A stretch of DNA of 64,000 nucleotides from an uncultured Gammaproteobacteria bacterium (GCA_964352335.1 CAYGRO010000003.1:24798-88797); one strand, 5' to 3'. Shown: positions 11,059-60,157, counted from the first letter of the stretch. The notes: generated by a model not told the origin, from the sequence alone. Numbers and translations are program-made.

Positions 11059-11188
11059 TAATTTTAAAAGCAAAGACCCCAGAAGAAAAGTGAATAGCGA
11101 TTTGTGTTAGCCAATTGGCGTGACATTTCGCATCTCTTCTTCTGGGGCTTACGGGGCCTGCGCACGACGAACCGGGTGGTTCACGGGC

Positions 11189-11365: not shown

Positions 11366-11427
11366 GTTTAGACTCCTCCTTTGTCTGATGACAGATTACC
11401 CCAAAACAGGATAATTGTCAACCGTGG

Positions 11428-11907
11428 CTACGCACCACAGTTGTCTTGGTCCGACATCCTATCTAGCACATGCAACAAGTGCATGTAGACAGCCATCCGG
11501 TATCTGTCGACGTGGTCCTGCTCCAAGGAGTGACAGAAGTACAGCTGGTCTCCTAGTCCCGCCATGTGGAAGAACAGCAGGATGCCTTCTCGGTGATTCG
11601 GATCAACGATCTCGTCGATCAAGAAAATGCGCTGGTGCATGACACCTTGCGCAGTCCTCATGATCAACGTCACTGGCTCGAAAGTCAAAGTCGGGACACG
11701 CGGGTCACCAACCCAAGCCGTTGTCAGCAAGATATCAGGAGGTGGAAACCTATCCACACCGCCGATCCCCGCCTGAATGACCACCTCACCAATCTCGTGA
11801 CTGGTTCCAGCGGTCTTGTTGTACTCAGCAACGCATCGCCGAAGCGAACGAAGGAGCTCACGGAAGACGGCTCGCCCTCCAATGATTGTAACTCGAATTT
11901 CTGCCAC
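11428..11907 (-). CDS. Hypothetical 159-aa protein in GC-rich island A, with an apparent GTG start
   Basis: Longest minus-strand ORF in the GC-rich segment, with a GAGGGG about 7 nt upstream. No recognisable family. High-GC DNA also yields spurious ORFs, so this call is tentative. Confidence 0.3.
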   Translation of the reverse strand: MAEIRVTIIGGRAVFRELLRSLRRCVAEYNKTAGTSHEIGEVVIQAGIGGVDRFPPPDILLTTAWVGDPRVPTLTFEPVTLIMRTAQGVMHQRIFLIDEIVDPNHREGILLFFHMAGLGDQLYFCHSLEQDHVDRYRMAVYMHLLHVLDRMSDQDNCGA

Positions 11908-12067
11908 TTTATATCCCCTCAGAATAGTGGTTTAATGTATTGCCAGCAAACCATTTGCTAGCTGATAAAACAAGTCCTCTGGGAACAGAGAACTTGCTGT
12001 ATCAGTAAAGATTACTATAGCACAAAAAGCCACTTTAGTCAATAAGTTATTGACTTTATTTGATCTT

Positions 12068-31570: not shown

Positions 31571-34500
31571 ATGACACAATTTAAAAAATGGAGTTTTTTA
31601 GGTAGTATTCTTTTTCTTACAATTGGTTCATTTCAGTATTTTTTTCAACAACAAAAAGTTGAACCAGCCTATGCAGCCGCTGGTGACGTAGCAGTAACAA
31701 TTACAAGAGCTGGGGATGCTCAAGCTGTAAGCGGAGCCAATATTCAAGTAAATTGTCCGGCAACTGGTAATAGTATTGTTTTAACAGAAGCTCCTCCCTC
31801 TTCTGGAAATTATTCAGGGAGTTTTCTTGGTCAATGTAATAATGGAGACGCTCTTCTTGCAACCATTCAAGTAAGTGGTTTTGTAGACCAAGCAGCACTC
31901 GCATTCCCTGGTAATTATAACCCTGGAACTGACCCAGATTGTGGTAGTAATACACAATGTTTAAATGTAACCAATTTTCAGCCAGGTGTAGCAATTACCG
32001 TAGAAGATGCTGGCTCTACCCCTATTACTGGGGCAACTGTAAGTTCTGCAAGTGTAGGATGTTATGCAGCTCCTGGTGGTGTTTATTTATGTATTGAACC
32101 AGAAGGCGCTGGTTGCCCAACAACAGATACGGCAACAGCCAATGCCAATGGATTTTTAGCTAATACTGGAAATTATAATCGAAGATGTAATGGGAACGAT
32201 GCACAAAGCCAAATAACAATCCAATTGGCTGTTGACCCCAATGCTGGAGGTGGTGGTATTTTCAAGTTTTTACAACAACAAGAATCTGAATCAAATAAGG
32301 AAACCATTCTACCTAAAATTAATACCAAGGCTATTGATATTCAAATTGAAGAATTAAAGCTTGAATCTACTAACCCCATTCTTATTTGCCCATTCCAAAC
32401 TGAAGAAAAAGATCTTGATGTCTATAGTTTTTACACCCCCCAAAATGCTCCGATTTCACCTATTCCAGGAGAAATTGTTCAACCAGGTATTTTTGGATTT
32501 AAAAATACACAAGGAAAAAATGTAAGAATTGAATTTAATAGTACAAATCCTGGTAATAACGATAATTGGAATTTTGAAGTCACACGCTCTCTTTATGAAG
32601 CTGTAGGGGTTCTTCTTTCATCTACAAAATATATTTATCGTGCTTCTTCAACAAATACTTTACAATTGGTTCAAATTTCTGATGCTCAATTTTTTAATCC
32701 ACAAACCTTACAAGTTATCGGAAACCAGACTATTTATGAATATGATGAAAACGGAAATCTAGCACGAGCTTTTATTCACCCTGATTTTAATGAAAACTTA
32801 CGAGAAGAACTTGCATTCGACGCCATTACTCCTCCTTCATCAGCCTTAGATCACTTTATCCCAAGAAGTAGTTGTCAATTAGCAAATGCCCCTCAACTTC
32901 CTCCAGAAAAAACAGCACCTCTTGAAATTGCCAATCCTATTATTCAATCCCCTTCTATTTTAGAGTTTGAATATGACGCAAATTCAAATGAAGTGCGTGT
33001 TGATTGTCCTGTAGAAACAGCCGTAGCTGGTATTGAGTCATTCCTCTTCTCTAAACTCTTTGCGCCAGGGATAATAGAACCAGGAAACTTACCTTTAGAC
33101 CTTGTTTATTTTATTGTTTGTGATAATGAAACAACGAACCTTGGTTTAGGTGAACGATTAGGAGTGATCAATTCATTTGCTTCAACCTTTAATAGAGTCC
33201 CATTGTCTACAGAAGACTGGATTGATGTTTTATTTATTGCCCATGGATCTGAACCAATACAAAAACCTTCTGAAAAGAAATTTGATGAAGCAAAAAATCT
33301 TTTCGTAAAACTCTTTGATCGACAACCAAATGAACAAGATCCACGTGACAGAGAAAAACTAGATCAATTAGTCTTTGGTATACGACCATTACAGCGAGAT
33401 CTCGAAAAAGAATATGGGGCTATTTTAGAATTTGGTTCAATCTTTAGTGCTTTCCCTGCCTCAAATATGGATTGGAATGTGGTAAGAACCCTTGCCTATG
33501 GAGATGATGTAATTGATTTAAATAAAGTAGATCGACAATTAGCAGATATTAGATCTTCATTAGAAAAAGGACCTTGTACAGAAGAAGAAATAGCCGCTTT
33601 AAATGCACAAAAAGCTCTATTAGAACAAGAAGCGGAAAGTCTTACAAAAAAACAAGATAAATTAAAAGATGAAATTAAAGCTTGTAATGATAAGTCCTCT
33701 GATATGCAGACCAAAAAGAATGATGCAAATACAAAAGCAGAAGATGCAGGAAAAAAATCTGACGACGCACAAAAAGAAGCAGATAAAGCAGATCAAGAAA
33801 TAGCAGACTTAGAAAAAGATATCAAAGATTTACAAGAAACATTAACTGGTGGTGATAATGTAGAAACAAAGTCTACAACAGATCCTCTTGGTGGCATTAA
33901 TTCTGGAGCTGCTATTACCTTTGATGGTGGGGTTACATGGGTTGTAGCAACTGGCGAAAGTGGTGCACAACAACTTGCAGAGAATTTGGCAAATAACCCA
34001 GGCATTGTAAAAGATTTGCAAAATAAGAAAAACGAATTGAATGAGAAAAAAGCTGATAAACAAAAAGCCGAAGAAAACAAAGAAAAGGCTGATAAAGAAA
34101 AAGCGGATGCCGAAAAAGAAGCCTCTGACCTAGAAAAACAACTTGAAGCAAAAAAAGCTGATACAGCAAAAAAAGAAAAGGACTTAGATGATATTGGAAA
34201 GCGTATTGATGAATTAAATAAAAAGATTGCCGAATTTAATGAAGTTGCAAAAAAATGCGATATCGCAGCTGCTGGTGCAAAAAGAGAAGCTTCTGAAAAG
34301 CTAAATGAAGCCAAAAAGAAATTAGACAAAATGCCCCCAGAAGAAAAAGAAGAAGCAGAAAATATCTTTGATGAAAATGCAACAGATGAAGAAAAAGGAG
34401 CCGATACAGATGCAGGATATGCTGGTGGAGCAGCTGATAAAGCAGCAGATAAACTAGAAGAAGCAATGCGTGCGGCTTCTGGCTGTAAAGATGGCGATAA

Positions 34501-35170
34501 AAAGTGTGGAGGAACCTATTCCACAGGCAAAACACTCATCGGTAGCGGGACAGAAGGATGGTTCCAAACCCTTCTCTATTTACGTGGCGGTGGTCTTGAT
34601 GGAGATGTTAAATACAATGAAATGGTAAATGATGTTCAAGATGCCTTTGGTAATGTAGAGTCGATTGAACAAGTAGGATTAGCTATTGGAACAACCGTTG
34701 AGGTTTTATCTGGCAGTAGTATTTTAGGGATTGGTATGGCTATTCCTGGTCTTGTTTATGGGGCTTGGTCAAATATAGCAACAGAAGCTGCCTTAAATAG
34801 AATTGCAGAAATTAGAAATGTTGTTCCTAACCCTACAATTGACGGAGACCTCTTCTTCTATGGAGGTTGGGATAAATATAGTCAAGACACCAGAATAGAA
34901 AGATTCATCTGTCTAGATGGAATTTGGCAACCAAATGGATCTTCACTTGTCTCTACCAAAATTACTTGTGAATATAGAGATCCAGCTATTGAAGTTGTCC
35001 CTATCCCAGAAGGAAACCTCCCCGACTACAGTGAAAAAGAAAATGGAAACTGGAGAAACCCAGATAGTCTTAAAAAATTCTCTGAATGGAGAGCAACCCA
35101 ATTAAATGAACACCAACCATTTGGTACCTGCAAAGAACAAATCTTTACGTATAGCCCTAGTTGTGGGTAA
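31571..35170 (+). CDS. Giant secreted protein (1199 aa) with an N-terminal signal/TM, a Cys-containing beta-rich region and a ~300-aa K/E/A/D-rich coiled-coil segment
   Basis: Hydrophobic N-terminus (WSFLGSILFLTIGSF). The coiled-coil block covers residues ~640-960 (KKADKQKAEENKEKADKEKADAEKEASDLEKQLEAKKAD...). Antisense ORFs in this block are low-complexity artefacts. Confidence 0.6.
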   Translation: MTQFKKWSFLGSILFLTIGSFQYFFQQQKVEPAYAAAGDVAVTITRAGDAQAVSGANIQVNCPATGNSIVLTEAPPSSGNYSGSFLGQCNNGDALLATIQVSGFVDQAALAFPGNYNPGTDPDCGSNTQCLNVTNFQPGVAITVEDAGSTPITGATVSSASVGCYAAPGGVYLCIEPEGAGCPTTDTATANANGFLANTGNYNRRCNGNDAQSQITIQLAVDPNAGGGGIFKFLQQQESESNKETILPKINTKAIDIQIEELKLESTNPILICPFQTEEKDLDVYSFYTPQNAPISPIPGEIVQPGIFGFKNTQGKNVRIEFNSTNPGNNDNWNFEVTRSLYEAVGVLLSSTKYIYRASSTNTLQLVQISDAQFFNPQTLQVIGNQTIYEYDENGNLARAFIHPDFNENLREELAFDAITPPSSALDHFIPRSSCQLANAPQLPPEKTAPLEIANPIIQSPSILEFEYDANSNEVRVDCPVETAVAGIESFLFSKLFAPGIIEPGNLPLDLVYFIVCDNETTNLGLGERLGVINSFASTFNRVPLSTEDWIDVLFIAHGSEPIQKPSEKKFDEAKNLFVKLFDRQPNEQDPRDREKLDQLVFGIRPLQRDLEKEYGAILEFGSIFSAFPASNMDWNVVRTLAYGDDVIDLNKVDRQLADIRSSLEKGPCTEEEIAALNAQKALLEQEAESLTKKQDKLKDEIKACNDKSSDMQTKKNDANTKAEDAGKKSDDAQKEADKADQEIADLEKDIKDLQETLTGGDNVETKSTTDPLGGINSGAAITFDGGVTWVVATGESGAQQLAENLANNPGIVKDLQNKKNELNEKKADKQKAEENKEKADKEKADAEKEASDLEKQLEAKKADTAKKEKDLDDIGKRIDELNKKIAEFNEVAKKCDIAAAGAKREASEKLNEAKKKLDKMPPEEKEEAENIFDENATDEEKGADTDAGYAGGAADKAADKLEEAMRAASGCKDGDKKCGGTYSTGKTLIGSGTEGWFQTLLYLRGGGLDGDVKYNEMVNDVQDAFGNVESIEQVGLAIGTTVEVLSGSSILGIGMAIPGLVYGAWSNIATEAALNRIAEIRNVVPNPTIDGDLFFYGGWDKYSQDTRIERFICLDGIWQPNGSSLVSTKITCEYRDPAIEVVPIPEGNLPDYSEKENGNWRNPDSLKKFSEWRATQLNEHQPFGTCKEQIFTYSPSCG

Positions 35171-35605: not shown

Positions 35606-37277
35606 TTAGGGCTTGTCCCGCGCCGTGACCAGGGTCCGGGCCGGGTCGAAGGTCCCGGGGTTGAGAGGGTCTTCCCTTCGCTCGATTGCGAAGAGAAAGT
35701 CCTCACCCAGAGTGGGCGTCCCGTTCTTGATGAACATGTGGCTATCCCTCACGTCGGAGGAACGACCATCGGGCATGAACGACCACTTGTTGTCGTCCCC
35801 CAAGTCCGCGTCGTTGAATGGCAACGTGTGCCGGCCAACGGGGTTGGTGGGGTCGACGTTCAAGCGCGTCGTGCCTTCGTCGAAGGGGAACGGATGCGTT
35901 CCCAGCTGTTGATTGGCCGCATCGCGACGCACCGTGAGCGTGGGAATGACCATCGTCCCGTAGTCCGGTGGACCGAACCAGGCGGGACTGTCGGTGTTGG
36001 TGCACCGCCAGATCGACGAGACCGTGGGAAGCACCCACTTGCCTGCTGCCACCTGGTACGGAATCCCGAACCGCATGTGGGTGTCCCAGATACGGTTGGT
36101 GATATTGCCGGAGCCGTCCAGTCGAACGTGAACGGTAGGGTTACCGTCGAGCGTACGCGACTTGAACGTCTGCGTCATCCCGTTGAAGGTCGCGGTGATG
36201 GTGAAGAACGAGTTGATCCCGTTACCTCCCTTCACGTCGCGCCCCTCGATGAGGATGGGCTGGCCGTTGAAGTCGTTGACCACCGCGGCCTTGTTGGCAT
36301 CGTCGATGGACATCGTACACTGCGTGGTCACCTCCGCCATGCTCGCGAGGTCATAGACCCGGAACCGACGCCGCTCGCCCATCGAGATGAACGAGGGAGC
36401 CTGGATGACCAGCCCCGTGGAAGGAAGTGTGGGAGAGGAAGTCAGTGTCAGCTCATTGCTGACGATGACCTCATTCCAGCCCTGTTGGACGGTAGAGGTT
36501 CCACCGCCAGCGTCGGTGAAGGTCTTGGTCAAGGTGGTCTGAGCACCGACCCCGAAGGAGCGGACCTTGATCTGCTCGTTGTTGAGACGAGCGACGACCT
36601 TGCCGTCCGCATCGACAGCGGCAGCCCCAGACACGACCTCGTAGAAGACGAGGGTCCTGTTGACCGAGGAGGCGTTGTCGGTGTGAACCAGGTTGGTACC
36701 CAGCTCCGCACCGGTCCCGACGTCGATCTGAGCCGGCGCCGAGAGCGTGATGCTCTTGAGCAAGTCCGTCGTGGGGATGGGGTTGCTCCCACCACCGCCA
36801 CCGCCTCCAGTGGAAGCGACGACGACCTCCACGATGTCGGTGATCCTCTCGGTGATCGTCTTGCCGTTCTTCGTCACGGTGAACGTGATCGAAACCTTGC
36901 TAGGCGCAACGGCCAGGATCAGCCCCGTGTTGTCCAACACCTGAACGATGTTGGGGTCGGAGCTATTGACGGAGTCAGCCGTAACCTTCTCCGTCTGGCT
37001 CGTTCCCTTGAAGATCGCCACGATCTCCAGCTGCTGCTGGGTACCCTGGACGAGCTGGAAGGCACGAGGGGTCACCCCGATACCGACGAACTCGAGGTTC
37101 GCAGTGTTGGGGTTGTTGGTGGGTGGAGTGTTCGTCGGTCCACCACCGCTCGGGTTGGCACCTCCGGAGCCAGCGAGCTGGTTACCCTTGGGGCGACGAC
37201 GCGAGTCGCAGGCCTGGAAGATCATCGCCGAAACGATGACGAAGATGATCAGAAACAGGGTGCGCAATCCACGCATA
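35606..37277 (-). CDS. GC-rich putative lipoprotein with Big_2-like Ig domains, likely horizontally acquired
   Basis: Lipobox at MRGLRTLFLIIFVIVSAMIFQAC, preceded by AGGAGGTG. A Big_2-like segment (VTPRAFQLVQGTQQQLEIVAIFKGTSQTEKVTADSVNSSDPNIVQV) and G/T/S-rich linkers are present. The GC content is far above the flanks. The opposite-strand 576-aa ORF is Arg-rich antisense noise. Confidence 0.5.
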
Positions 37278-37470
37278 GTACACCTCCTAGGTGTTTGAAA
37301 CGTTGTTTGATATGAAAAAAGCACTCGCTAGCAATATGCCAGCAAATACTCTCTCCCCTTCTATTCTCTCATTACAGTGGCGCATTTAAGCGTATAATGA
37401 AAGAATAGATTAAATTACAATAAAAACGGCTTTTTGTCAAGCCATAAAGCCCCTAATAAAATAGCTAATA

Positions 37471-43224: not shown

Positions 43225-43797
43225 TTACCAAAAACTAAGAGTCATAACACCATAAGCGAGCAATACATTAAAAAAAGTATTCCCAATTAAAGCGATCGGG
43301 AAAATATAACGCAATCGATACCCAAGAAAACCAAGGGGAACGATTACCAATTCATTTGGCGCTGGTGCAATTGAAGCATAAATACCTAAAACAATTAAAG
43401 GCAAGCGAGGATTTCTTTCTTTTAATCTTGTAATTGTTGTTAAAGATTTTTGTGAAACGGCAGATGTTGTAATTTTTCTTCCCGTATCTCCAATAAAATA
43501 ACCAATTACATCTCCTGTTGTCATTCCTAAACTAATCAAAAAAATGGTAAAAAAAGGATGAAGACCTGATTGAACAAAAACAGAATAAAATGCAATAACC
43601 GGAATTGGTACAAAAACGTTAAACCCACTAATAATTGAAATAATAAATAACCCTGGATAACCAAAAGCCTGAACAATAGCTTGTATTGCCGAATCATTTG
43701 GCACAGATTTTGTTAAATAAATCGCTGTGATCAAGATAACCAAAACAATTCCTGCTTGCACAACAAGTTTAACTATTTTTTTCTGTTTTTCTTTCAT
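43225..43797 (-). CDS. DedA/VTT-family membrane protein
   Basis: 190 aa with hydrophobic helices. The glycine-containing segment GMTTGDVIGYFIGDTG is typical of DedA/SNARE-associated proteins. Confidence 0.45.
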   Translation of the reverse strand: MKEKQKKIVKLVVQAGIVLVILITAIYLTKSVPNDSAIQAIVQAFGYPGLFIISIISGFNVFVPIPVIAFYSVFVQSGLHPFFTIFLISLGMTTGDVIGYFIGDTGRKITTSAVSQKSLTTITRLKERNPRLPLIVLGIYASIAPAPNELVIVPLGFLGYRLRYIFPIALIGNTFFNVLLAYGVMTLSFW

Positions 43798-43888
43798 TCC
43801 CTTATTTTAGCACAAATTTCATAGATCTATAACGAACGACACGCCAGATAAGATTGCTCTCATCTGACGTGTCTGTTGAGATAGATAC

Positions 43889-44734
43889 CTAGTCGAGGTA
43901 GGCCATCATCGCTTCGAGGAATTTCCGTAACTGTTCAGCCCGGTCAGCTCCTCGGCGGCTGATCTCTTCGTGGTCGTGCTCTTCCTTGTCATCGTTGGTG
44001 ATCAAGCAGAGCATCAAAGCACGAACACCTAGATCTCGGTACAACCGAGCAAGGTACATTTCCCACTGCCCGCTCATTCCGATGACTTCTGCCCCCCAAC
44101 TCTTGAAGAGAGGTTTTTCCGCCCACCGCCCCTCGAGATGAGGTCCACGGCAGATCATGTGAGTGGCAAGCTTACCACCCAGCTCCTCTATGGCGACACG
44201 AGAGAGCTCATGATCAACACCGTCTTCTGGGGCAGCGAAATCGTCGCCGGCAAAAGCCATTGGCGGGCTGTAGAACGAAGCACCAAGGAAAGCCCTTGGC
44301 ACAGCGATGTCCCCAACCACGAGATCCTCGGAAAGACTCCCGCAACCGCTCGTCGAGATCAAGTAGCGGACTCCTGCGTGGAAGAGCATCTCGATTGAGA
44401 GGCGTGCGAGCTTCATGCTTGGGTCTTGGTAGCCATGGATTCGGCTACAAATGACAACATCAAGCCCCTTAACCTCCATATAGCCCAGCCACTTACCGTG
44501 ACCATCAACACCATCGAGGTTCGCGACTTCTTCCAAGCCGGGAACGTCTTGAAGACGGATCTTCACCTTGAAGTCCTTGTCTTCGAAAGCATCACCCCAG
44601 CCACTACCTGGAATGATGGCAACTGCTGGGCTGCTCCCCTTTGGAATCTGCAGAAGATCCCGAAGAGCTGCCCCGGCTTTCTCTGCCGACTCGAGGCAAG
44701 CTCGATTTACACCTTTTTCCATAAACACATCCAA
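43889..44734 (-). CDS. Purine nucleoside phosphorylase / MTA phosphorylase-family enzyme (PNP family 2), GC-rich and likely horizontally acquired
   Basis: IIPGSGWG phosphate-binding loop and VIGMSGQWEMYLARLYRDLGVRALMLCLITND, which matches the PNP/MTAP signature GMSTVPEVIVARH...SLITN. The GC content is far above that of the neighbouring genes. Confidence 0.6.
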   Translation of the reverse strand: MDVFMEKGVNRACLESAEKAGAALRDLLQIPKGSSPAVAIIPGSGWGDAFEDKDFKVKIRLQDVPGLEEVANLDGVDGHGKWLGYMEVKGLDVVICSRIHGYQDPSMKLARLSIEMLFHAGVRYLISTSGCGSLSEDLVVGDIAVPRAFLGASFYSPPMAFAGDDFAAPEDGVDHELSRVAIEELGGKLATHMICRGPHLEGRWAEKPLFKSWGAEVIGMSGQWEMYLARLYRDLGVRALMLCLITNDDKEEHDHEEISRRGADRAEQLRKFLEAMMAYLD

Positions 44735-44892
44735 TGCCCGTAGGCTCTAGAGGAAAAGTGAGATTATCAAAGTTTTTTAGAAATGACCAATATACCCTTG
44801 CCAAAAACACAATAATCTGGTAAATTTTCTTTAATCTAAATTCAATTTGATAATGATTTTCAATTTGTATTATTTTACCTAATTTTAGCTAA

Positions 44893-46332
44893 ATGTCTAA
44901 AGAAAAAGTCCAAAAAATAGCTGATCAGGAGTATAAATATGGCTTTGTAAGCGATATTGAAATGGATATTGCTCCAAAAGGCTTAAATGAAGATACGATT
45001 AGACTCATTTCTCAAAAGAAGAATGAGCCTGATTTTATGTTGGAATTTAGACTCAAAGCTTATAAACATTGGCTTACACAAACGGAGCCAAAATGGTCTA
45101 ACCTTACCTACCCTCCTATTGATTACCAAGAAATCTCGTATTATGCCGCTCCAACCAAAAAGAAGGAGCTAAAATCTTTAGACGAAGTAGATCCAGAAAT
45201 TTTAGAAACCTTTAAAAAATTAGGCATTTCTTTAGATGAACAAAAACGATTATCCAATGTTGCCGTAGATGCCGTGATGGATAGTGTTTCTGTCGCGACA
45301 ACCTTTAAAGATAAATTAGCCAAAGCCGGTGTTATTTTTTGTTCTATTTCAGAAGCGATTCAAACTCATCCTGAATTAGTAAAAAAATATCTAGGAACTG
45401 TTGTCCCCTATCATGATAATTTTTTTGCGACATTAAATTCAGCAACGTTTACCGACGGATCTTTTGTTTATATTCCAAAAGGTGTTCGTTGCCCAATGGA
45501 ATTATCTACCTACTTTAGAATCAATGCTGCCAATACCGGTCAATTTGAACGCACACTTATTATTGCCGACGAAGGTTCGCATGTAAGTTACCTCGAAGGT
45601 TGTACAGCTCCAATGCGAGATGAAAATCAATTGCATGCTGCTGTTGTAGAATTGATCGCTTTGAAGGATGCAGAAATCAAATACTCAACCGTACAGAACT
45701 GGTACCCCGGTGACGAAAACGGAAAAGGTGGTATTTATAATTTTGTTACGAAGCGTGGATTATGTCTTGGTGAGAATTCAAAAATTTCTTGGACGCAAGT
45801 AGAAACTGGTTCTGCAATTACATGGAAGTACCCTAGTTGCATTCTGCGTGGAGATAATTCTAAAGGAGAATTTTACTCTGTTGCTTTAACAAACAATATG
45901 CAACAAGCGGACACAGGAACAAAAATGATTCATGTAGGAAAAAATACAAAGAGCACAATCATTTCAAAAGGTATTTCTGCTGGAAAAAGCAAGAACACTT
46001 ATCGTGGAATGGTTAAGGTTGCCAAGAATGCATCAAATACAAGAAACTTCACACAATGTGATTCTTTATTGATTGGATCTGAATGTACCGCCGACACCTT
46101 CCCTAAAGTGGATGTAAAAAATGCAGACTCAATGGTTGAACATGAAGCAACAACATCAAAAATTTCTGATGAACAATTATTCTACCTGCAACAACGGGGA
46201 TTAAACCCAGAAGACGCAGCAAGCTTGATTGTCAACGGATTTTGTAAAGATGTCTTTGACCAACTCCCAATGGAATTTGCAGCCGAAGCTCATCAATTAT
46301 TAGCACTTAAATTAGAAGGGACTATTGGATAA
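44893..46332 (+). CDS. sufB: Fe-S cluster assembly protein SufB
   Basis: 479 aa with full-length SufB similarity (…[14 protein letters not shown]…). Confidence 0.9.
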
Positions 46333-50614: not shown

Positions 50615-53600
50615 ATGAAAAAGCAGAAAAGAAAAAAAGCTGAGAAAGTAGAACACTATTCGCCATCAAAAAAAGAATTTCATCTTCTTTCTAGCCCAGC
50701 ACCCGCTTTTGTCCATTTTTTCCTTAAAATTGGGCATTTTTTCCATTGGTGCTTTCATCTCTTACTTCCAGACAATTTCAAAGAAGACCCAGGTTTTACA
50801 GACCATGTGAAGCTATTTTTCATGACGCGCCACTATTCCTATTTGCGAAAGTTCTTTGTTGTGTGGATGTTTGTCATTACAACAACAATTGGTGTAACCG
50901 GATATAATATTTATCAAGCCAGAGAATTAGGTGCAGCCAATGCCACATTTCCTTTTGATATTTCTGGAAGTTATACATTCGATTCAGCCAGAGTCAATGT
51001 AACCGGAAGTGAGGCAGTGCTTTTATCTGTTGATCAAATTGACAATGACAATACAGCTACAGGTTTTGCCGGAGGAACATTTTCTGACACAAACTTTGCC
51101 ACCAGCCACGTAGGACTTGATGCAACAGGCCTCACAAATGGAACAGGAACTTTTACTTCACGAATAATAAATGCGGGAGGTTCTGTTGCGTGGAATCAAT
51201 TAGACTGGACCCCAGAAAGACCAATTCAAAAAGAACTTCCAAATAATAGCGGAATTGAATCTGCTTATAGCACAGGTAATATGTCTATGACAGGGAATGT
51301 ACTTTTAATGCATTTAAATGAAACAAGTGGAACCATTACTGATTCTTCTGTGAATGGGAATACTGCAACTGGAACAGGTATTACATATGCAAGCCAAGGT
51401 ATCTTTGGAACCGGAATTGATTTAACCGGAAATGGTGATAAAATTGAATCAAGTGCCTTTAATTATGTTTTTGGAACTGAAATTACACTAGCAGGATGGT
51501 TTCGATTTACCGGCCCAGGAACTGGTTCACCTAGAATTTTAGAAATCTCAAGACTTGGTGATTCAAACACACATGCTCTTGCGCCAGACGGAGATGGTTC
51601 TCTGCGTGCTTGGGCTGTTTGTAATAATGGATCGCGTGTAGGCTCTGCCGACGACCCAACAAACTATAACGACGGCCAATGGCATCATTTTGTTTACACA
51701 TATAGTAATCCAACAGGAATTATTTATGTAGATGGCGTGCAAACAGCTACAGCTTCTAATGCATGTGCAAACTTAGATGACGGGAGTGAGCTGATTTTGG
51801 GTGCAATTTCAGATGTAAGTGGTAACTTTACAAATGCACAACATGAATTTGATGGATACATTGATGAAATGGCTGCATTTAACCGAGCATTAACCCCAAC
51901 AGAGGTTCAAGACATCTATTTACGTGGTGCGTTAAGACAACAAATTCAGGTAAGAACATGTGACGATGCTATTTGTGATACAGAAGTTTTTGTAGGATCA
52001 GACGGAACAAATGGAACTTTTTTTAGTGAGCTTTTAAATTCAACAACTGGATTGCCAAGTCTTGCAATGCCCCTCCCTAATAATCAATACTTTCAATACC
52101 AAGTTACTCTAGAAACAGATGACAATGTCACAAACTCTCGATTGAGTAATGTTACTATTGGCCCAAGCCATTTAGACGGAGGTTCACCAACTATTCAAAA
52201 TACCTCTGGTATTGCTTATACATCATCGTTGGATAGCTTTACAGAAACACTCGGAGGTGGGCATACTGGAACAACAACTTATCAACTTTCCAATAATGGT
52301 GCGAATTTCTATTATTTTAACGGAGGTTCATGGTCTCCAGCTGTGAGTTCTGTTCAATCGAATACAGCTGGAATTATTGGTGCGAATATCACAACATTTG
52401 TAAATGACGTAGGTACAGGTAACTTCTTTTTTCGTGCCTTTTTAGGTTCGAATTTAGGGACACAAGTCATTGAATTAGATCAAATTGAACTAACATTTGA
52501 CACAGGTGGAGGAGGCGGTGGTGGAGGGTCTTCGAAAATCTTTTTTCTCCCCCCCAGCGCACCAGGTGATGGGTTTCAAGTTATCATTAACGAAAAAGCA
52601 GAACAAACAACAGACCAAATTGTAGACCTTACATTTAATGCTGGTAATGAAGTATCGCTTGTAGAGTTATCAAATGAACAAAGTTTTATAGAATCAATTA
52701 CTTTAGGACTAACACCAACTATTGAGTGGGATCTTTGTTCTGTGAGTGGAAAACCTGTTTCTAGAGATTGCCCAGATGGCGAATATACTGTCTATGCAAA
52801 TTTTTTAACATCTTTAGGACAACCTCCATCTCCAATAGTTTCTGACACAATCACATTAGGAGAAGAAGAAGAAGAAGTTGTTGAAGAAGAACCAGTGGTA
52901 ACTGAACCAGAAACCGAAACTGAAGAAACTCCCGATGAAGAAGTCATTATAGAACAAGAACAAAACGAACCTCCTATTACACCAGCCCCCTCTGAACCAG
53001 AAGAAACAACTGAACAACCCGAAGATGAAACTCAAGAACCATCTGTAATCGAGGAAGAGATTGTAGAAGAAAACCAACAAGAACCTACTCCAATTCAACC
53101 TTCACCAGAACAAACACCCCCGCAACCACCTATAAACCAGAACGACCCCACAACCGCTCCGCCTTCAGAAGTAAATGAAGGGCAAATCATTCAAACAGTC
53201 ACACAAGAAATTGGAACAAATAACTATTTACTAACTGTTTCTACAGGAGAAGAACTAGAACAGAATGAAAAAGTATTTGTACAATTTTTGTCTGGAGCTC
53301 TTGCTGGTCAAAGCATTGTTTTAGATGAATACGTTGCAAATGACCAAGAAATTTTCTTTTACACCCCACTCCAAGTAAACCCAAGTCCTGGTGATAAAGT
53401 AAAAGTATCTGGAGGAACTGTGTTTAAGCAAGAAACATTTGTCTCACCAAAAACAGAATCAACTGTTTCAGACTTTAAAGTGTCGGCACCTGAAAAACCT
53501 TCTCTTCTTGCGCTACAAATTGTAATAGCTATTGGCTTGTTTTTAGGCCTGTTTATTCTCTTTTCATTGTGGAAACAAAATACTGCCCTTACAACACTCA

Positions 53601-53653
53601 TTGAACATGAACACGCGAACTTATACCATAAAGGGAAACACGGTAAGCACTAA
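50615..53653 (+). CDS. Large surface protein, paralog 1 of 3 (N-terminal TM, conserved beta domain, LamG/concanavalin-like lectin domain, acidic P/E/T-rich linker, C-terminal domain and C-terminal TM anchor)
   Basis: 1012 aa. LamG signature FDGYIDEMAAFNRALTPTEVQDIYLRG. Gly-run GGGGGGGS. C-terminal helix LLALQIVIAIGLFLGLFILF followed by a basic tail. Confidence 0.6.
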   Translation: MKKQKRKKAEKVEHYSPSKKEFHLLSSPAPAFVHFFLKIGHFFHWCFHLLLPDNFKEDPGFTDHVKLFFMTRHYSYLRKFFVVWMFVITTTIGVTGYNIYQARELGAANATFPFDISGSYTFDSARVNVTGSEAVLLSVDQIDNDNTATGFAGGTFSDTNFATSHVGLDATGLTNGTGTFTSRIINAGGSVAWNQLDWTPERPIQKELPNNSGIESAYSTGNMSMTGNVLLMHLNETSGTITDSSVNGNTATGTGITYASQGIFGTGIDLTGNGDKIESSAFNYVFGTEITLAGWFRFTGPGTGSPRILEISRLGDSNTHALAPDGDGSLRAWAVCNNGSRVGSADDPTNYNDGQWHHFVYTYSNPTGIIYVDGVQTATASNACANLDDGSELILGAISDVSGNFTNAQHEFDGYIDEMAAFNRALTPTEVQDIYLRGALRQQIQVRTCDDAICDTEVFVGSDGTNGTFFSELLNSTTGLPSLAMPLPNNQYFQYQVTLETDDNVTNSRLSNVTIGPSHLDGGSPTIQNTSGIAYTSSLDSFTETLGGGHTGTTTYQLSNNGANFYYFNGGSWSPAVSSVQSNTAGIIGANITTFVNDVGTGNFFFRAFLGSNLGTQVIELDQIELTFDTGGGGGGGGSSKIFFLPPSAPGDGFQVIINEKAEQTTDQIVDLTFNAGNEVSLVELSNEQSFIESITLGLTPTIEWDLCSVSGKPVSRDCPDGEYTVYANFLTSLGQPPSPIVSDTITLGEEEEEVVEEEPVVTEPETETEETPDEEVIIEQEQNEPPITPAPSEPEETTEQPEDETQEPSVIEEEIVEENQQEPTPIQPSPEQTPPQPPINQNDPTTAPPSEVNEGQIIQTVTQEIGTNNYLLTVSTGEELEQNEKVFVQFLSGALAGQSIVLDEYVANDQEIFFYTPLQVNPSPGDKVKVSGGTVFKQETFVSPKTESTVSDFKVSAPEKPSLLALQIVIAIGLFLGLFILFSLWKQNTALTTLIEHEHANLYHKGKHGKH

Positions 53654-56600
53654 TTGTATATGAAGAAAAAACATCATAGACCAAATCATAACCACCCTGT
53701 CATTGCCTTTTTACTAAAGACAAGTCATTTTTTTCATTGGTCTTTTCATGTTTTACTTCCCGACTTTATCTCAAAAGTACCTAGTGCCAAATTAAACAGG
53801 CTTCTTTTCTTAAAAACTCGTTACTTTTCTAAGATGAGAACTCTTGTTATCGGGTGGCTTATTATGAGCATTAGTATTTTAAGTGTCACAGGATATCAAT
53901 TTGCAAAAGCTCCAATCATAAAAGCAGCCAATACTACCTTCCCTTTTGACCTAGCAGGAAACTATACTTTTGACACAGACAGAATAGCAATTGGATCAAG
54001 TCTTGCAACGCTTCCGTCGGTCGACCAAATAGATGACGACAATACTGCTACGGGTTTTGCAGGAGGGACGTTTAGTGACACCGCGTTTTCTGGAGGCTTC
54101 TTGCAATTAGACGCAACTGGACTTACAAATACCACAGGGCTTTTTACTTCAAGAGTTATAGACGCAGGTGGTGACGTAGCATGGTCGTCAGTGGACTGGA
54201 CACCTCAACGCCCCTATCAAAAAGATCTTCCCGACTCAGGATCAGCTGAAACGGCGTATACTGCTGGGAATATCGACATGAATGGTAATCTTGCATTACT
54301 TCATGCAGACGAAACAGCTGGTGCAACAACGATTCTAGATTCATCTGGTAATGCGAATAACTTCTCTTGTACTACTTGCCCTGCTTCTGGAGGAACGGGC
54401 CGATTCAATACAACCCTAGAATTCAATGGAGGCGAAACACTTGAGGACGCAGATGGAGAAACCTATTTAAACGGGCTTACTGCATTCTCATTGGGTTTTT
54501 GGGTCAAATCCGATGTCGTTGGAACTGACAGAGGCTTTTTTATCGGAACAGCCCCAAGTGGAAGTGATGACGGACTTACTATTCGTTACGACGATGCGGG
54601 CGCAAACGGAGGAGGAAATGATGTCATTAAAGCAGGAATAACAACAACCACAGGAACAACACAAGTCGAAAGCTCTACAAATATTCAAACAACAGACTGG
54701 CAACATATTGTTCTCACATGGACCTCTGGCAGTGCTTTATCACTGTATGTAAACGGCCAACTGGACACACCAACCAGTGCAGGAGCGACCGTAGGAGGAG
54801 CCATTAGCACATTAGACCGAGCAATACTTGGGAGAGGTGGAAAAGACACAGCAGCAGGAGCCGGGTGGTTAGGACTAATCGATGAATTCTCGGTTTTTGA
54901 TAGGGCACTCGCCCCAGCAGAAATTTCTGATCATTATCTTCGGGGTGCGACAAGACTTGGAATTCAAGTTCGTTCTTGTGACGATGCAATTTGTGACATA
55001 GAACCATTTATTGGTCCAGACGGAACAGCAAGCACCTTTTACGGTGAAGGCTTAAATACAACAAATGCACTCCCAAGCACAACGACACTTTCTTCTATCG
55101 TAAACAACCGTTACTTTCAGTATCAAATAGTATTAGACTCAGATGATTCGATTACAACACCTCAATCTTCTTCATTTTCTTTTGCCCCATCTCATTTAGA
55201 TGCAGGTGGCCCAACTATTCAAAATGCAACAGGAATAACATATCAAACAATCGATGGATTTGTAGAAACTCTTGGGGGAGGAAATACTGGCACAACAAGA
55301 TACCAAGTCTCAAATAATGGAACAAATTTTTATTACTTTAATGGATTAAATTGGGTAACGGCTCTCTCTGCTGCACAAAGTAATCCTGCTGGTGTTATTA
55401 ATAGTAATGCAACAACCATTGCAACTGATATTGGAACTGGAGACTTCTTTTTTCGAGCTTTTCTAAATTCAGCACTCGGACAACAAATTGTAGAACTAGA
55501 TGAAATTGAAGTTATTTTTGACACAAGCTCAAATAATAACGGGGGTGGTGGTAGCTCATTACTCTTCTTTAGCCAACCAGTCCCCCCAACCAATGGATTT
55601 GCATTAACAATAAACGAAGAAGCAACAGTAACAGAATCACCTCTTGTTTCATTAGGTTTTAATGCTGGCTCAGATATTTCCCTTGTTGAAATTTCTAATG
55701 AACCAAATTTTTTAGAATCAATTACATTAACCTACTCAAATCCACTTTCTTGGAATCTCTGCTCCTCTAAAGGAGAAGCACAAACTGAATGTATAGATGG
55801 TGAATACACCGTTTATGCAAAATTCTATAAATCATTTGGTCAAGCCCCTTCGGTCGTTGTTCAGGATACTATTGCCCTTCTCTCCCTCGAGAACATAGAT
55901 GCTATTGATAAAAACACTGAAGAGGAAAACCCTACTGAAGAAAAATTATCACCAATTGAAATCCCCGAAGACAATACACCACCAACAGAAGAACCTCTCA
56001 TTGTTGATGCTGAAAACCAAGAAGAAAATGAAACCATTCTCTCTCCCCCATCAGAAATAGTTGAACAAGAACAAAAGAAAGAACAGGAATTATTACAACC
56101 AGAGTCTACACAAGAAAAAGAATTAAATCTTCCCACCTCACCACAAACGCCTTCGGAACAACCAAGCCAACCAATTCCTCAAAAGACTCAAACTCTGCCT
56201 CAAACACAAGTTGTACAACAAGTATCACAAGAAATTGGCACTTCTAACTTTTTGATTAGTACAACATTACCTGCTGGGTTTGATGAAAACGAATCTTTTG
56301 TTATTTCTTTTACCTCTGGTGCCCTTGCTGGTCAAAGCGTGCTTATTGATAAATATGTAGCAAATGACCAAGGTATTCTTCTTTTTACAGAGCTTAAAAC
56401 CTCACCAACTATTGGAGATTTGTTTCAGCTCTTTTCTGGAAGATTTTATGAAGAAAAAACATTTGTCTCTCCACAACTTCCCCCCTCTTCACCTGTTATA
56501 ATTCAATATGACAGCTTTACTGACCAAAGATCATTTTTCTGGTTTCTCTTTGGGTTGCTTATTGTAACTATCACAGGTTTTGGACTCCTTGTACTTGTGC

Positions 56601-56692
56601 TCTTCCGATTATGGAAACAAAACACAACGCTTACAACACTCATCGAAGCTGAGCACAAAGAATTGTTTATGAAGAAAAGAAAGCGTAAATAA
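53654..56692 (+). CDS. Large surface protein, paralog 2 of 3
   Basis: 1012 aa, colinear with paralog 1 (TFPFDLAGNYTFD...VDQIDDDNTATGFAGGTFSDT...; LIDEFSVFDRALAPAEISDHYLRG). The linker and C-terminus are divergent. Confidence 0.6.
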   Translation: MYMKKKHHRPNHNHPVIAFLLKTSHFFHWSFHVLLPDFISKVPSAKLNRLLFLKTRYFSKMRTLVIGWLIMSISILSVTGYQFAKAPIIKAANTTFPFDLAGNYTFDTDRIAIGSSLATLPSVDQIDDDNTATGFAGGTFSDTAFSGGFLQLDATGLTNTTGLFTSRVIDAGGDVAWSSVDWTPQRPYQKDLPDSGSAETAYTAGNIDMNGNLALLHADETAGATTILDSSGNANNFSCTTCPASGGTGRFNTTLEFNGGETLEDADGETYLNGLTAFSLGFWVKSDVVGTDRGFFIGTAPSGSDDGLTIRYDDAGANGGGNDVIKAGITTTTGTTQVESSTNIQTTDWQHIVLTWTSGSALSLYVNGQLDTPTSAGATVGGAISTLDRAILGRGGKDTAAGAGWLGLIDEFSVFDRALAPAEISDHYLRGATRLGIQVRSCDDAICDIEPFIGPDGTASTFYGEGLNTTNALPSTTTLSSIVNNRYFQYQIVLDSDDSITTPQSSSFSFAPSHLDAGGPTIQNATGITYQTIDGFVETLGGGNTGTTRYQVSNNGTNFYYFNGLNWVTALSAAQSNPAGVINSNATTIATDIGTGDFFFRAFLNSALGQQIVELDEIEVIFDTSSNNNGGGGSSLLFFSQPVPPTNGFALTINEEATVTESPLVSLGFNAGSDISLVEISNEPNFLESITLTYSNPLSWNLCSSKGEAQTECIDGEYTVYAKFYKSFGQAPSVVVQDTIALLSLENIDAIDKNTEEENPTEEKLSPIEIPEDNTPPTEEPLIVDAENQEENETILSPPSEIVEQEQKKEQELLQPESTQEKELNLPTSPQTPSEQPSQPIPQKTQTLPQTQVVQQVSQEIGTSNFLISTTLPAGFDENESFVISFTSGALAGQSVLIDKYVANDQGILLFTELKTSPTIGDLFQLFSGRFYEEKTFVSPQLPPSSPVIIQYDSFTDQRSFFWFLFGLLIVTITGFGLLVLVLFRLWKQNTTLTTLIEAEHKELFMKKRKRK

Positions 56693-56697
56693 TTTCT

Positions 56698-59600
56698 ATG
56701 AAGAATAGTAATCATCATAAAAATGCTTATAAACAAATCATTCAACTAAAGAATGGTGTTCTTAAATATCTTTTACTTTTTCTTCATTTTGTTCAATGGT
56801 CTATACATCTACTTATTCCAGATGAAATCACAGATATCCCTAGTCTTAAAAAAGCCTGGGAAATTGTAAAAACACATCAAAGATTTTACAGGCTACGCTA
56901 TGCATTCGGAACACTCGTACTTCTTACTGCAGTACTTGGTTCATCTGCTTTTTATAGCTTAAAAACGAGTCCTCTCCTTTTAGCAGCTGCAACAACTTTT
57001 CCGTTTACTGTACCAGCAAATTACACCTTCTCCGCAACTGCTATTAGTCTAAATGCAGGGATAGCATCTCTTATTGCTATTGATCAAATTGACGATGATA
57101 ATACAGCTACAGGATTTGCTGGTGGTACATTTTCAGATACAGAATTTTCACTCACAAACTTACAACTAGATGCTACTGGTATTACAAATGGAACAGGTAT
57201 GTTTACTTCTCGAGTCATAGACGCTGGAAGCTCTGTTGCATGGTCTACCTTTAATTGGACACCACAAGCCCCCTACCATAAAGAACTCCCAGACAATGCA
57301 GCCATAGAAACAAACTACACAAATAGAAATGTTTCTATGGTAAATAATGAATTACTCCTTCATTTAAATGAATCAGGTGGCGCAGTAAGTTTTGCAGATA
57401 CTTCTGGAAATGCTGCAAATGGTAGTTGCGCAGATTGCCCTACACAAACAAATGGTCAATTTAACAATGCATTTGAATTTGATGGAGCTACAAATGAAAT
57501 AGAACTACCAAACTCAGTCTTAAACGGAAGCGGTGATTCTAGTATTGCACTTTGGTTTCGAACAGCAAATACGGGCCAACAAGCAATTATTAGTGGAGCA
57601 AATGGATCAAATGACAATGAATACCTTCTCTTTCTTCCAAATCAAACTACTATTGCCTTTTATACAGGAGAAAGCTCAGGAGGAAACACAACTTGGGCTG
57701 TACCGTCTATGGCAGACAATAACTGGCACCATCTCGTACTCACAAGAGATGATTTAAACAATCAAGTATCTGCTTATTTTGATGGATCATTACTTTCTAC
57801 ACAAGGCACCACAATTAACCCTGTTTCAATAGACCTTGGCGGCTTATTTCTTGGGCAAGAGCAAGATTCTGTTGGGGGCGGGTTTACTCCAACACAAGCT
57901 TTTGAAGGCGATATGGATGAAGTAGCTATTTTTTCTCGTGTACTCACCGCATCAGATGTAACCGCTATCTATGAAAGAACATTTCACGATATCCGCTTTC
58001 AACTACGTTCTTGCGACGACTCACTTTGTGATACAGAACTATTTATTGGCCCAGATGGCACAGCTGGAACTTTTTATGACGAATTAGGAAATGCAACTAT
58101 AAACCTACCTTCACAAACTATTACAAATCTTTCAGATAATCGATATTTTCAGTATCAAGCAACACTTACATCTTCAGACAATATTCAAACACCACAAGTG
58201 TCTTCAATTTCTGTAGGCCCTACTCATTTTGATGCAAGCACTCCCTCTATTACTCCATTAACAGGGATTCCATACACTTCACTTACAGGGTTTACAGAAA
58301 CTTTGGGCGGAGGAAATGTAGGAACAGTTCAATACCAAATTTCTAATGACAATGTAACCTATTATTATCATAATGGAGCCAACTGGGTTTCTGCGATTAA
58401 TTCAGCACAAAGTAATACTGCATTAGGCGTGAATGCTCAAATTTCAAGCTTTGTTTCAGACATTGGCACTGGTGACTTCTATTTTAGAGCATTCTTTTTC
58501 TCAACAAACGGAGTTCAGCAAGTTGAGTTAGATGAAGTAAGTATTAGTTTTGAAAATGACCCGGGTAATGGTGGAAACGGAGGAGGCTCTTTCATCTTCT
58601 TAGCTCTCCCTCCAACACCTCCAGCAGAAGGATTTAAGGTTTTGATAAATGAAGACAATGAATTTGCAGAATCTCAAAATGTCACGCTTTCTTTTAATGC
58701 AGGTTCTGACATTAAACTAGTAGAGCTTTCTAATGAAGAAACAATGACTGAGTCTACAACTATTAGCTATAAAGAGGAACTTGCGTGGGACCTTTGTTCA
58801 ATTCGTGGTGAAACACAAAATTCAGTTTGTGAAACAGGAGAAAAAACTGTCTACGCTCGTTTTTCAAAAGGTTTTGGATCTACTCCTTCAGATGTTGTTA
58901 GTGACACCATTATTTTAAATCAAAATGTTGGAACTCCTGTTGAAACACCAAAAGAAACTATAAATGAATCAGAAACAAATCAAACAGAAGAAGAAGACTT
59001 AAATAGCGAAACACCAACGGAAAATACAACCAAAACAACAGAGGAACAGCAAGAATCAACAGAAACTTCTGATGAAACACCCTCTACAGAACAAGTAGAA
59101 ACAGAAATACCTGTAGAAACAACTGAACCGACTCCACCCTCTGCTGAGGAAAATATCAGTCAACAACCTTCACCAACTCTAGAAACAAAACAAGAAACGA
59201 CAGAACCTCTGGTGGCAGAACAGCCCGAAACAGACCAACAACTTCAAGTAACACCAAATGGTATTTTACTAACCTCTTCTATTCCCCCTGGTCCTCTAGG
59301 TCAATCAACTATTCCAACAACTCTCACAGAACCATATGCTGGTTACTACAATGGAGCATTTATTATCTTTACTTCTGGAGATGTTGTAGGACAAATGGCT
59401 CAAATAGAAAAATTTGTAGACGGTCAATTCTTCTTTACTCCCCCATTATCTATTACACCTTCTGTAAATGATCAATTCACAATTACCATTCCATTACAAA
59501 CAGAAGACACAACAATGGTTTCCTCAAATAGTTCTGATCTTCAAGGAATAGCAACAATTTTCCGAGATCTTGTCTATCCAAGAGACCTCATTAGAACAAT

Positions 59601-59733
59601 CTTTTGGGCTGGTGTCTTTATTGGAGCAGGAGTAGCAATTATTCTAACGAGAATCCTTATGATTCTCTGGCAACACCACATGCTCACACATCATGCAACA
59701 AGCATTCCAAAACGCAAAAACAAAAAAACTTGA
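56698..59733 (+). CDS. Large surface protein, paralog 3 of 3
   Basis: 1011 aa, colinear with paralogs 1 and 2 (TFPFTVPANYTFS...IDQIDDDNTATGFAGGTFSDT...; GDMDEVAIFSRVLTASDVTAIYERT). Confidence 0.6.
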   Translation: MKNSNHHKNAYKQIIQLKNGVLKYLLLFLHFVQWSIHLLIPDEITDIPSLKKAWEIVKTHQRFYRLRYAFGTLVLLTAVLGSSAFYSLKTSPLLLAAATTFPFTVPANYTFSATAISLNAGIASLIAIDQIDDDNTATGFAGGTFSDTEFSLTNLQLDATGITNGTGMFTSRVIDAGSSVAWSTFNWTPQAPYHKELPDNAAIETNYTNRNVSMVNNELLLHLNESGGAVSFADTSGNAANGSCADCPTQTNGQFNNAFEFDGATNEIELPNSVLNGSGDSSIALWFRTANTGQQAIISGANGSNDNEYLLFLPNQTTIAFYTGESSGGNTTWAVPSMADNNWHHLVLTRDDLNNQVSAYFDGSLLSTQGTTINPVSIDLGGLFLGQEQDSVGGGFTPTQAFEGDMDEVAIFSRVLTASDVTAIYERTFHDIRFQLRSCDDSLCDTELFIGPDGTAGTFYDELGNATINLPSQTITNLSDNRYFQYQATLTSSDNIQTPQVSSISVGPTHFDASTPSITPLTGIPYTSLTGFTETLGGGNVGTVQYQISNDNVTYYYHNGANWVSAINSAQSNTALGVNAQISSFVSDIGTGDFYFRAFFFSTNGVQQVELDEVSISFENDPGNGGNGGGSFIFLALPPTPPAEGFKVLINEDNEFAESQNVTLSFNAGSDIKLVELSNEETMTESTTISYKEELAWDLCSIRGETQNSVCETGEKTVYARFSKGFGSTPSDVVSDTIILNQNVGTPVETPKETINESETNQTEEEDLNSETPTENTTKTTEEQQESTETSDETPSTEQVETEIPVETTEPTPPSAEENISQQPSPTLETKQETTEPLVAEQPETDQQLQVTPNGILLTSSIPPGPLGQSTIPTTLTEPYAGYYNGAFIIFTSGDVVGQMAQIEKFVDGQFFFTPPLSITPSVNDQFTITIPLQTEDTTMVSSNSSDLQGIATIFRDLVYPRDLIRTIFWAGVFIGAGVAIILTRILMILWQHHMLTHHATSIPKRKNKKT

Positions 59734-60075: not shown

Positions 60076-60086
60076 CAGTCACTCTG

Positions 60087-60157
60087 TTCCGAGACGAGGA
60101 TTCGAACCCCGATTCTATGGACCAGAACCATATGTCCTACCATTAGACGATCTCGGA
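60087..60157 (-). tRNA. tRNA-Gln (anticodon CUG)
   Basis: Manual fold: acceptor TCCGAGA/TCTCGGA, D-stem GTCT/GGAC with loop AATGGTA, anticodon stem TATGG/CCATA with loop TTCTGGT (anticodon CTG), variable loop GAAT, T-arm CGGGG-TTCGAAT-CCTCG, discriminator A. CCA is not encoded. Confidence 0.7.

Follow-up and report, generated by a model that had tools for sequence, protein, structure and literature searches.

The window analysed here, a stretch of 64,000 nucleotides from an uncultured bacterium filed under the Gammaproteobacteria (GCA_964352335.1, CAYGRO010000003.1:24798-88797), contains a GC-rich insert with a single gene for a purine nucleoside phosphorylase (PNP), located between a dedA gene and the sufB gene. 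When the GC content was scanned in 500-nt and 100-nt intervals along the 64 kb, the background proved to be AT-rich (500-nt intervals mostly between 0.30 and 0.40, average about 0.35), and at about 43850-44750 the 100-nt intervals changed abruptly from 0.21-0.37 on both sides to 0.52-0.59. An earlier note on this DNA had placed a horizontally acquired PNP gene in a GC-rich island at 43830-44760, between an AT-rich DedA gene and the suf operon. This description is essentially right: the flanks are a DedA/VTT-domain gene and the sufB-sufC-sufD-sufS-nifU genes, the segment holds one long open reading frame (ORF) on the minus strand, and the insert maps to 43817-44792. Its edges were set by comparison with relatives, for which SufB homologues led to four syntenic loci in related metagenome assemblies, designated L001, L008, L009 and L010; L001 represents the sister genome. 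SufB itself is conserved too strongly for the host to be placed by it (76% identity to Ignavibacteria and others). The features of the locus are the following (GC3 denotes the GC content at third codon positions; aa, amino acids):

43225-43797, minus strand: dedA, a native AT-rich gene for a DedA/VTT-domain protein (Pfam VTT_dom; GC3 0.188), with orthologues in L008 and L009
43804-43812, minus strand: putative extended -10-like element TGCTAAAAT of dedA, recognized by direct reading, just outside the insert; the L009 equivalent is TGATATAAT
43817-44792: GC-rich insert, 976 bp, GC 0.527, with edges ...CACAAA (dedA side) and TACCCTTGCCAAAA... (sufB side), from the empty-site comparison
43838-43873, minus strand: terminator-like hairpin (consensus scan and reading), a 16-pair stem followed by GTTCGTTATA, 16 nt past the PNP stop codon and within the insert
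43889-44722, minus strand: PNP coding sequence, 277 aa plus stop, ATG at 44722 (PF01048, PDB matches, AlphaFold2, TM-score, catalytic residues)
44723-44792, minus strand: 5' leader of the insert, 70 nt, consisting of an AT-rich 42 nt and then a GC-rich 28 nt ahead of the ATG
44798-44826, plus strand: sufB promoter-like site (consensus scan), TTGCCA, 17-nt spacer, TAAATT, with TG preceding the second hexamer
44893-46332, plus strand: sufB, native, first gene of sufBCDS-nifU (Pfam SUFBD_core; product 92% identical to the L001 SufB)

The gene stands in the window as an insertion, a point on which the relatives bear out the earlier note. In L009 (SufB 82% identical), dedA and sufB are divergently oriented neighbours, the entire spacer between them measures 123 nt, and the empty site reads ...CACAAA|CCCTTGCCAA..., two motifs that stand 976 bp apart in the window (43816 | 43817-44792 | 44793). 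The edges were set by alignment to this site. Other cargo is found at the same junction in L008, a 244-aa family-2 glycosyltransferase (GT2) with a GC content of 0.47 versus 0.39, while L010 carries unrelated sequence there and no PNP. We also sought a strain lacking the insert through contigs that encode an identical SufC, but these contigs, only 1.9-2.9 kb long, were too short.

A block of approximately 100 nt upstream of sufB (44793-44892) is kept in L001, L008 and L009, and partly in L010; it holds the TTGCCA hexamer, which starts 6 nt from the insert edge as the predicted -35 region of sufB, and a TTATCAAATT-like motif. It is likely a promoter or regulator site and forms the fixed edge of a variable slot. 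Because one edge of the insert is this sufB promoter block and the other adjoins the -10-like element of dedA, the insert is placed exactly between the predicted, back-to-back promoters of dedA and sufB. Reading of the leader (44723-44792) revealed neither a convincing promoter of its own nor a strong Shine-Dalgarno sequence, and the leader has no similarity to that of L001 past the junction. A consensus scan detected TAGACA-16-TAAAAT on the minus strand within the conserved block, so transcription of the PNP gene may begin there.

Abrupt GC changes are a classic warning sign of an assembly chimera or of contaminant read-through in a metagenome-assembled genome; the source is indeed a metagenome-assembled contig, and the proteins of the window occur once in the collection (all 11 that were found there are singletons). 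We nevertheless regard such an artefact as barely credible, since the block is internal, native syntenic genes lie within 100 nt on both sides, the edges match the empty site to the base, and 10 contigs that were assembled independently from other samples have a homologous GC-rich gene at the equivalent place. The 277-aa product is also recorded in a public assembly.

The assignment of the gene to the PNP-type phosphorylases, made in the earlier note from family signatures, is upheld by profile, fold and active-site comparisons. The protein matches Pfam PF01048 (PNP_UDP_1) with 77.2 bits against a cut-off of 25.1 (E = 1.7e-21), residues 62-277 covering positions 21-232 of the 233 in the profile. 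Among the NCBIfam models those for purine-nucleoside phosphorylases rank at the top, yet the scores lie far below the trusted cut-offs (PRK08202, 103.6 vs 218 bits; TIGR01697, 83.5 vs 197.1; TIGR01700, 69.6 vs 293; TIGR01698, 65.4 vs 303); models for uridine phosphorylase and DeoD score much lower than those for PNPs. The enzyme is thus a divergent member below the equivalog cut-offs, and the substrate range of its relatives is not automatically transferable. An identity as MTAP was rejected (TIGR01694, 58.5 vs 274.85 bits; other MTAP models, 24-40 bits; weaker and partial matches to MTAPs in the PDB).

Sequences of trimeric PNPs in the PDB align with the protein from end to end. Its AlphaFold2 model, built with 77 homologues, has a pLDDT of 93.8 and a pTM of 0.92, and the best 50 Foldseek matches are all PNPs (TM-scores 0.76-0.84, E about 1e-22), with the human and M. 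tuberculosis enzymes at 0.80-0.84. The roles of the residues in the phosphate, ribose and base sites of PNPs are established in the structural literature. In pairwise alignment, residues S33, H64, R84, H86, Y88, E201, M219, S220, N243 and H257 of the human PNP all have equivalents. The phosphate-site residues S33, H64, R84, H86 and S220 correspond to S40, H75, R94, H96 and S217; R94 and S217 are invariant in an alignment of 130 sequences, and H75, R94, H96 and S217 in one of 77. In the ribose and base site, Y98, E197, M216, N243 and H251 are kept, and the human F200 is conservatively changed to L196. The Glu/Asn pair (E201 and N243 of the human enzyme) is a hallmark of specificity for 6-oxopurines (inosine, guanosine). 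As judged from these alignments and the model, the gene encodes an intact and probably active, if sequence-divergent, PNP of the trimeric type. With the trimeric PNPs (PunA/human-type; EC 2.4.2.1; PF01048) the window protein shares the fold, the full-length alignment and the binding residues, but it is only 23-27% identical to them, has GSGWG for GSGLG, Leu for F200 and Ser/Gly for N115/A116, and possesses a shorter loop ahead of the catalytic His.

The composition of the gene sets it apart from the rest of the window. The sole ORF of the insert (minus strand; 43889-44734 if read from the earliest possible start) has a GC content of 0.552 and a GC3 of 0.586, whereas the 44 other ORFs of the window have a mean GC3 of 0.233 (standard deviation 0.033, maximum 0.317); the z-scores are 10.6 for GC3 and 8.4 for GC. 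A comparison with gap and eno had been proposed in the earlier note, and the GC3 of both gap (12068-13078) and eno (6668-7975) is 0.252, which leaves the PNP gene as a strong compositional outlier. At the first and second codon positions (GC1 0.655, GC2 0.414) it is at the level of a native high-GC homologue, that of L005 (0.639 and 0.410), and GC3 alone is lower (0.586 vs 0.774). The encoded protein has a high-GC type of amino acid composition: its GARP and FYMINK fractions are 0.31 and 0.21, compared with 0.20-0.24 and 0.28-0.35 for native neighbours and 0.18 and 0.35 for L013, a native homologue from a low-GC genome. High GC1, GC2 and protein composition combined with a lowered GC3 would be expected if the gene came from a donor with roughly 55-65% GC and its silent sites had started drifting towards the composition of the host.

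High GC is not a property of this enzyme as such, as the GC content of homologues roughly follows that of their own contigs. In four source genomes the values for gene and rest of contig are 0.34/0.35, 0.50/0.47, 0.61/0.62 and, with the loosest fit (L007), 0.68/0.59. This matters for the view that the gene is native, was never transferred, and had its high GC content made or kept locally by GC-biased gene conversion at an accessory slot prone to recombination or by selection on mRNA or DNA. Such a process would agree with the presence of GC-rich accessory genes on AT-rich backgrounds in all five related genomes examined, with the high GC3 of divergent homologous surface-protein genes (0.80 in the second GC-rich island of the window and 0.845 in L010, at 27% identity), and with the combination of a GC3 of 0.87 and an AT-type protein composition in the GT2 of L001. 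We consider it highly improbable for the PNP gene: the bias extends beyond silent sites to an amino acid composition like that of native high-GC homologues, the slot is cleanly empty in L009, the L013 homologue (GC 0.34, in a low-GC genome) demonstrates that PNP function needs no high GC, and the intergenic promoter stretch within the L001 island is AT-rich, a misfit with regional conversion bias. A local GC-raising process is accordingly disfavoured for the PNP, while for other accessory genes of the lineage it is still a candidate.

Relatives of the window PNP (P0001) are distant. HMMER, run exhaustively against 1.84 billion cluster representatives, returned only 829 proteins at E <= 1e-3; the best match was the slot PNP of L001 (P0002, 46%), followed by proteins at most 40% identical, the nearest subfamily lying at 35-40%. 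No homologue more than 46% identical was found among 15 billion proteins, and a scan of the GTDB species representatives with the PNP pair, in which the source genome is not included, produced one distant match, 33% identical, whose short high-GC contig carries the label Gammaproteobacteria. A profile search delineated a coherent PNP subfamily that scores at least 233 bits, with a sharp drop to at most 145 bits for other PNPs. All named members are Patescibacteria (Nomurabacteria, Harrisonbacteria, Uhrbacteria and the Parcubacteria/Patescibacteria group), and the amino acid composition is of the GC type in 95 of the 119 proteins of the subfamily. An affinity to actinobacterial enzymes, with which the earlier note had suggested a comparison, was not found: the nearest homologues are those just described, and an actinobacterial donor was rejected, the M. 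tuberculosis PNP (the best actinobacterial match in the PDB) being 23-24% identical.

Together with the subfamily proteins (punA genes in metagenome-assembled genomes of Nomurabacteria, Harrisonbacteria, Uhrbacteria and Parcubacteria), the window PNP has the motifs G-[ST]-G-W-G, GH-x-R and E-E-H-x-H-E; it differs from them by a one-residue deletion and by RIHGYQD for GRIHLNE and GMSGQ for GMSxLPE. On a hidden Markov model (HMM) of the subfamily from which the slot genes had been left out, P0001 and P0002 reached 211 and 222 bits, and human and other PNPs 124-164; the window protein is thus about 50 bits above other PNPs and yet below all true members (at least 240 bits, median 365, values biased upward by the members being in the model). 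In a neighbour-joining tree of 130 sequences, P0001, P0002 and the second PNP-like protein of the L001 slot (P0029) form a clade with 99% bootstrap support, within which P0002 and P0029 are sisters (99%). This slot clade, accompanied by P0021 and P0035, is basal to the 119-member group and inside the outgroups, with nearest-neighbour support of 36-64%. From these placements, the slot genes appear to be a divergent offshoot whose nearest known relatives are a subfamily with Patescibacteria as its only named members.

The sister genome carries the counterpart of the insert. The L001 slot holds three GC-rich genes, a PNP, a PNP-like paralogue and a GT2, and there is no dedA at this locus. P0002 is 45% identical to P0001, has a GC content of 0.60 and a GC3 of 0.69, and occupies the same slot in the same orientation. 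Features shared by the slot PNPs are IIPGSGWG, a one-residue deletion before RIHGYQDP, GMSGQ and LYRD-GVR-LML. The other slot genes are:

L001 11050-11940, plus strand: P0029, tandem PNP paralogue, with RVNPF for RIHGY, GNSGQ for GMSGQ and TT for TN
L001 12079-12810, minus strand, and L008 9125-9859, plus strand: GT2 genes beside the sufB promoter, with GC3 values of 0.87 and 0.49, respectively, and an AT-type amino acid composition in both

P0029 has lost key catalytic residues, which makes either inactivity or a new function probable. The GT2 of L001 lies on the strand opposite to the PNPs and is 66-67% identical to that of L008; a public plus-strand gene call at 11986-12861 is spurious and no PNP paralogue, the real gene being this opposite-strand GT2.

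We consider it likely that the PNP gene was acquired horizontally as a single gene from a high-GC donor, probably a patescibacterium, before the window and L001 lineages split, and that it was then partially ameliorated. The acquisition proposed in the earlier note is retained for this lineage, but it is not private to it, as the 45%-identical GC-rich PNP in the L001 slot and the 99% bootstrap clade attest. A single acquisition that predates the split is favoured by the common slot and orientation, by the shared derived features, by the monophyly of the slot PNPs and by the age of the pair: the identity at four-fold degenerate sites of conserved residues is 0.35 for the PNP pair (0.26 at saturation) and 0.31-0.51 for flanking core genes (0.27-0.34 at saturation), so the PNPs are about as old as their neighbours. 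We infer the donor, the timing and the route of entry, and likewise the expression and activity of the gene, along the following lines. A trimeric-type PNP gene would have come from a genome with a GC content of about 55-65%, most probably that of another member of the Patescibacteria, and would have entered with its own terminator hairpin between the back-to-back promoters of dedA and sufB. The insertion would have occurred in the common ancestor of this organism and the L001 lineage and been inherited vertically since, with third codon positions drifting in part towards the AT-richness of the host while the protein kept its high-GC amino acid make-up; in the L001 lineage a tandem duplication of the PNP gene would have followed. 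As no mobility signature was seen, the simplest route of entry is probably DNA uptake and illegitimate recombination at a promoter-flanked, selectively neutral spot.

Several observations weigh against this history. The slot PNPs score 211-222 bits against at least 240 for the subfamily members and branch basally in the tree, so a patescibacterial donor is the nearest fit to the sequences and falls short of being demonstrated. The window and L001 are almost saturated at synonymous sites, and more distant genome pairs keep a similar small excess of identity. A rough neutral estimate of amelioration would give a GC3 of about 0.44-0.50, compared with the observed 0.59-0.69, and at 45% identity the PNPs are the most diverged protein pair nearby (most neighbours, 53-92%). 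Neither a donor nor a close homologue was found among the 1.84 billion cluster representatives and 15 billion proteins, which makes source and direction inferential. The insert holds one gene only and no integrase or recombinase, it has no meaningful flanking direct or inverted repeats, and there is no tRNA gene near it, the only one in the window being at 60086-60157. Insertion of a mobile element was rejected on the lack of flanking repeats, tRNA and recombinase, and a phage vector because a scan of viral contigs gave no PNP relative.

The divergence of the PNP pair and a GC3 above the amelioration estimate would also be explained if the slot were a recurrent landing or replacement site, at which the two lineages gained a PNP separately and later, each from its own GC-rich donor, the two donors being related; a permissive location flanked by two promoters, and not common descent, would in that case account for the shared position. 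The cargo at the junction does vary (none in L009, a GT2 in L008, a PNP in the window, two PNP-type genes and a GT2 in L001), and the GC3 values of the two GT2s, 0.87 and 0.49 at 66% identity, indicate that some slot genes have arrived or been replaced recently. Separate gains are in our view rather unlikely, given that the slot PNPs are monophyletic with shared derived features, that 15 billion proteins include no member of the supposed donor clade, that the gene has the same orientation and the same place with respect to the sufB promoter in the window and in L001, and that the synonymous divergence of the PNP pair is similar to that of flanking core genes. The single, older acquisition thus stays our preferred account.

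The PNP would convert purine (deoxy)ribonucleosides and phosphate into the free base and (deoxy)ribose-1-phosphate, with substrates of the inosine/guanosine type predicted, and could feed purine salvage and the use of pentose carbon in an organism that presumably cannot make nucleotides de novo. Patescibacteria generally lack de novo nucleotide synthesis and commonly possess DNA-uptake machinery. Reduced epibiotic bacteria are thought to depend on scavenged nucleosides; the gain or loss of a PNP therefore directly alters what they can salvage.

The proposed history has parallels. Transfers into groundwater Patescibacteria come mostly from other Patescibacteria (83% of events; PMC12455944), and punA is patchy in one patescibacterial genus of 35% GC (2 of 10 genomes; PMC11809585), a distribution that matches an accessory gene subject to gain and loss. 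Like the islands of the groundwater study (PMC12455944), the present case involves a metabolic gene in an ultra-small AT-rich genome, and an intra-phylum donor is the commonest kind there. It differs from them in being smaller than 1 kb, in comprising a single gene devoid of mobile-element hallmarks, in having been detected through its GC content and an empty site instead of a donor-recipient pair, and in being older and common to two diverged lineages. The gain of an arginine deiminase system by mammal-associated Saccharibacteria (PMC8764695) is a precedent for the acquisition of a catabolic or salvage function to the benefit of a reduced epibiont; there, another pathway is concerned, encoded by a multi-gene operon and experimentally tested, whereas the window PNP is known from its sequence. 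The event is a small, hallmark-free single-gene transfer of a kind already described for Patescibacteria, and otherwise ordinary. What makes the locus an unusually clean example is the base-precise empty site, the tandem expansion in the sister genome and the datable partial amelioration; it could help to calibrate the speed at which such genomes assimilate foreign genes, and it defines a divergent branch of PNPs.

The earlier note had counted three GC-rich islands of similar GC in the window, and there are indeed only two further stretches with a GC content of at least 0.5 at this scale, at about 10.9-12.0 kb (island A) and 35.4-37.3 kb (island B). The note's suggestion that all three came by repeated uptake from one kind of donor stays conjectural. 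GC3 differs among the three (0.59 for the PNP, 0.64 for A and 0.80 for B), and the genes of A and B have no clear family; comparisons across islands are subject to ascertainment bias, since only GC-discordant transfers are visible. Island A (10950-11990, GC 0.52-0.55) adjoins the native AT-rich gap gene and contains no clean long gene; it has a 159-aa ORF (11428-11907, minus strand, GC3 0.64) and short overlapping fragments, and its ORFs had no Pfam match. Going by its sequence, this may be either an orphan gene or an acquisition in decay. Island B (35606-37324, minus strand) encodes a 572-aa protein that resembles a lipoprotein and matches Big_2 weakly (GC 0.61, GC3 0.80) and is the least ameliorated of the three. 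Its product is 27% identical to that of a GC-rich 542-aa gene of L010 (2683-4311, GC3 0.85), and it had no relatives in JGI metagenome contigs.

GC-rich accessory genes in a lower-GC core also occur in the related genomes (L008, 1-1936; L009, 1104-2208; L010, 2683-4311 and 14805-15674; L001, 2242-2460 and 20169 to the end). Most belong to no known family, and several lie beyond an MFS gene, as does island B in the window. The other island ORFs of the window, L001, L008, L009 and L010 gave no Pfam families, and a metagenome scan for donors with the GT2s of L001 and L008 found only relatives at most 41% identical. Homologous surface-protein genes have GC3 values of 0.72-0.85 in genomes of 35-49% GC. 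At 66% identity the two GT2s are as similar as neighbours inherited vertically typically are, but the L001 gene shows no amelioration in its composition. The patterns of the GT2 and surface-protein genes are at odds with a small number of ancient, subsequently ameliorated transfers. The PNP island might be one example of a lineage-wide rule by which accessory genes of these ultra-small, AT-rich genomes keep a high GC content at silent sites, even where they seem to be vertically inherited or encode proteins of AT-type composition. Such a rule strikes us as distinctly unlikely; if true, it would imply either that genes are continually exchanged with an unsampled pool or partner organism of high GC, or that a local process raises the GC content, for instance biased gene conversion at slots prone to recombination.

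A literature search on DUF5671 found nothing. Elsewhere in the window, three tandem paralogous ORFs of 1011-1012 aa occupy 50615-59733 (plus strand); the first, the only one scanned, has a Laminin_G_3 (concanavalin-like lectin) domain, and the three probably encode surface proteins. At 31571-35170 (plus strand) lies a 1199-aa ORF with no Pfam match, in which a very strong AT skew of +0.31 to +0.47 at about 33.5-34.5 kb suggests a compositionally biased or repetitive protein segment. Finally, a single 832-aa ORF at 21790-24288 (minus strand) fuses a MurG (glycosyltransferase 28) domain to a MurC-like Mur ligase domain.

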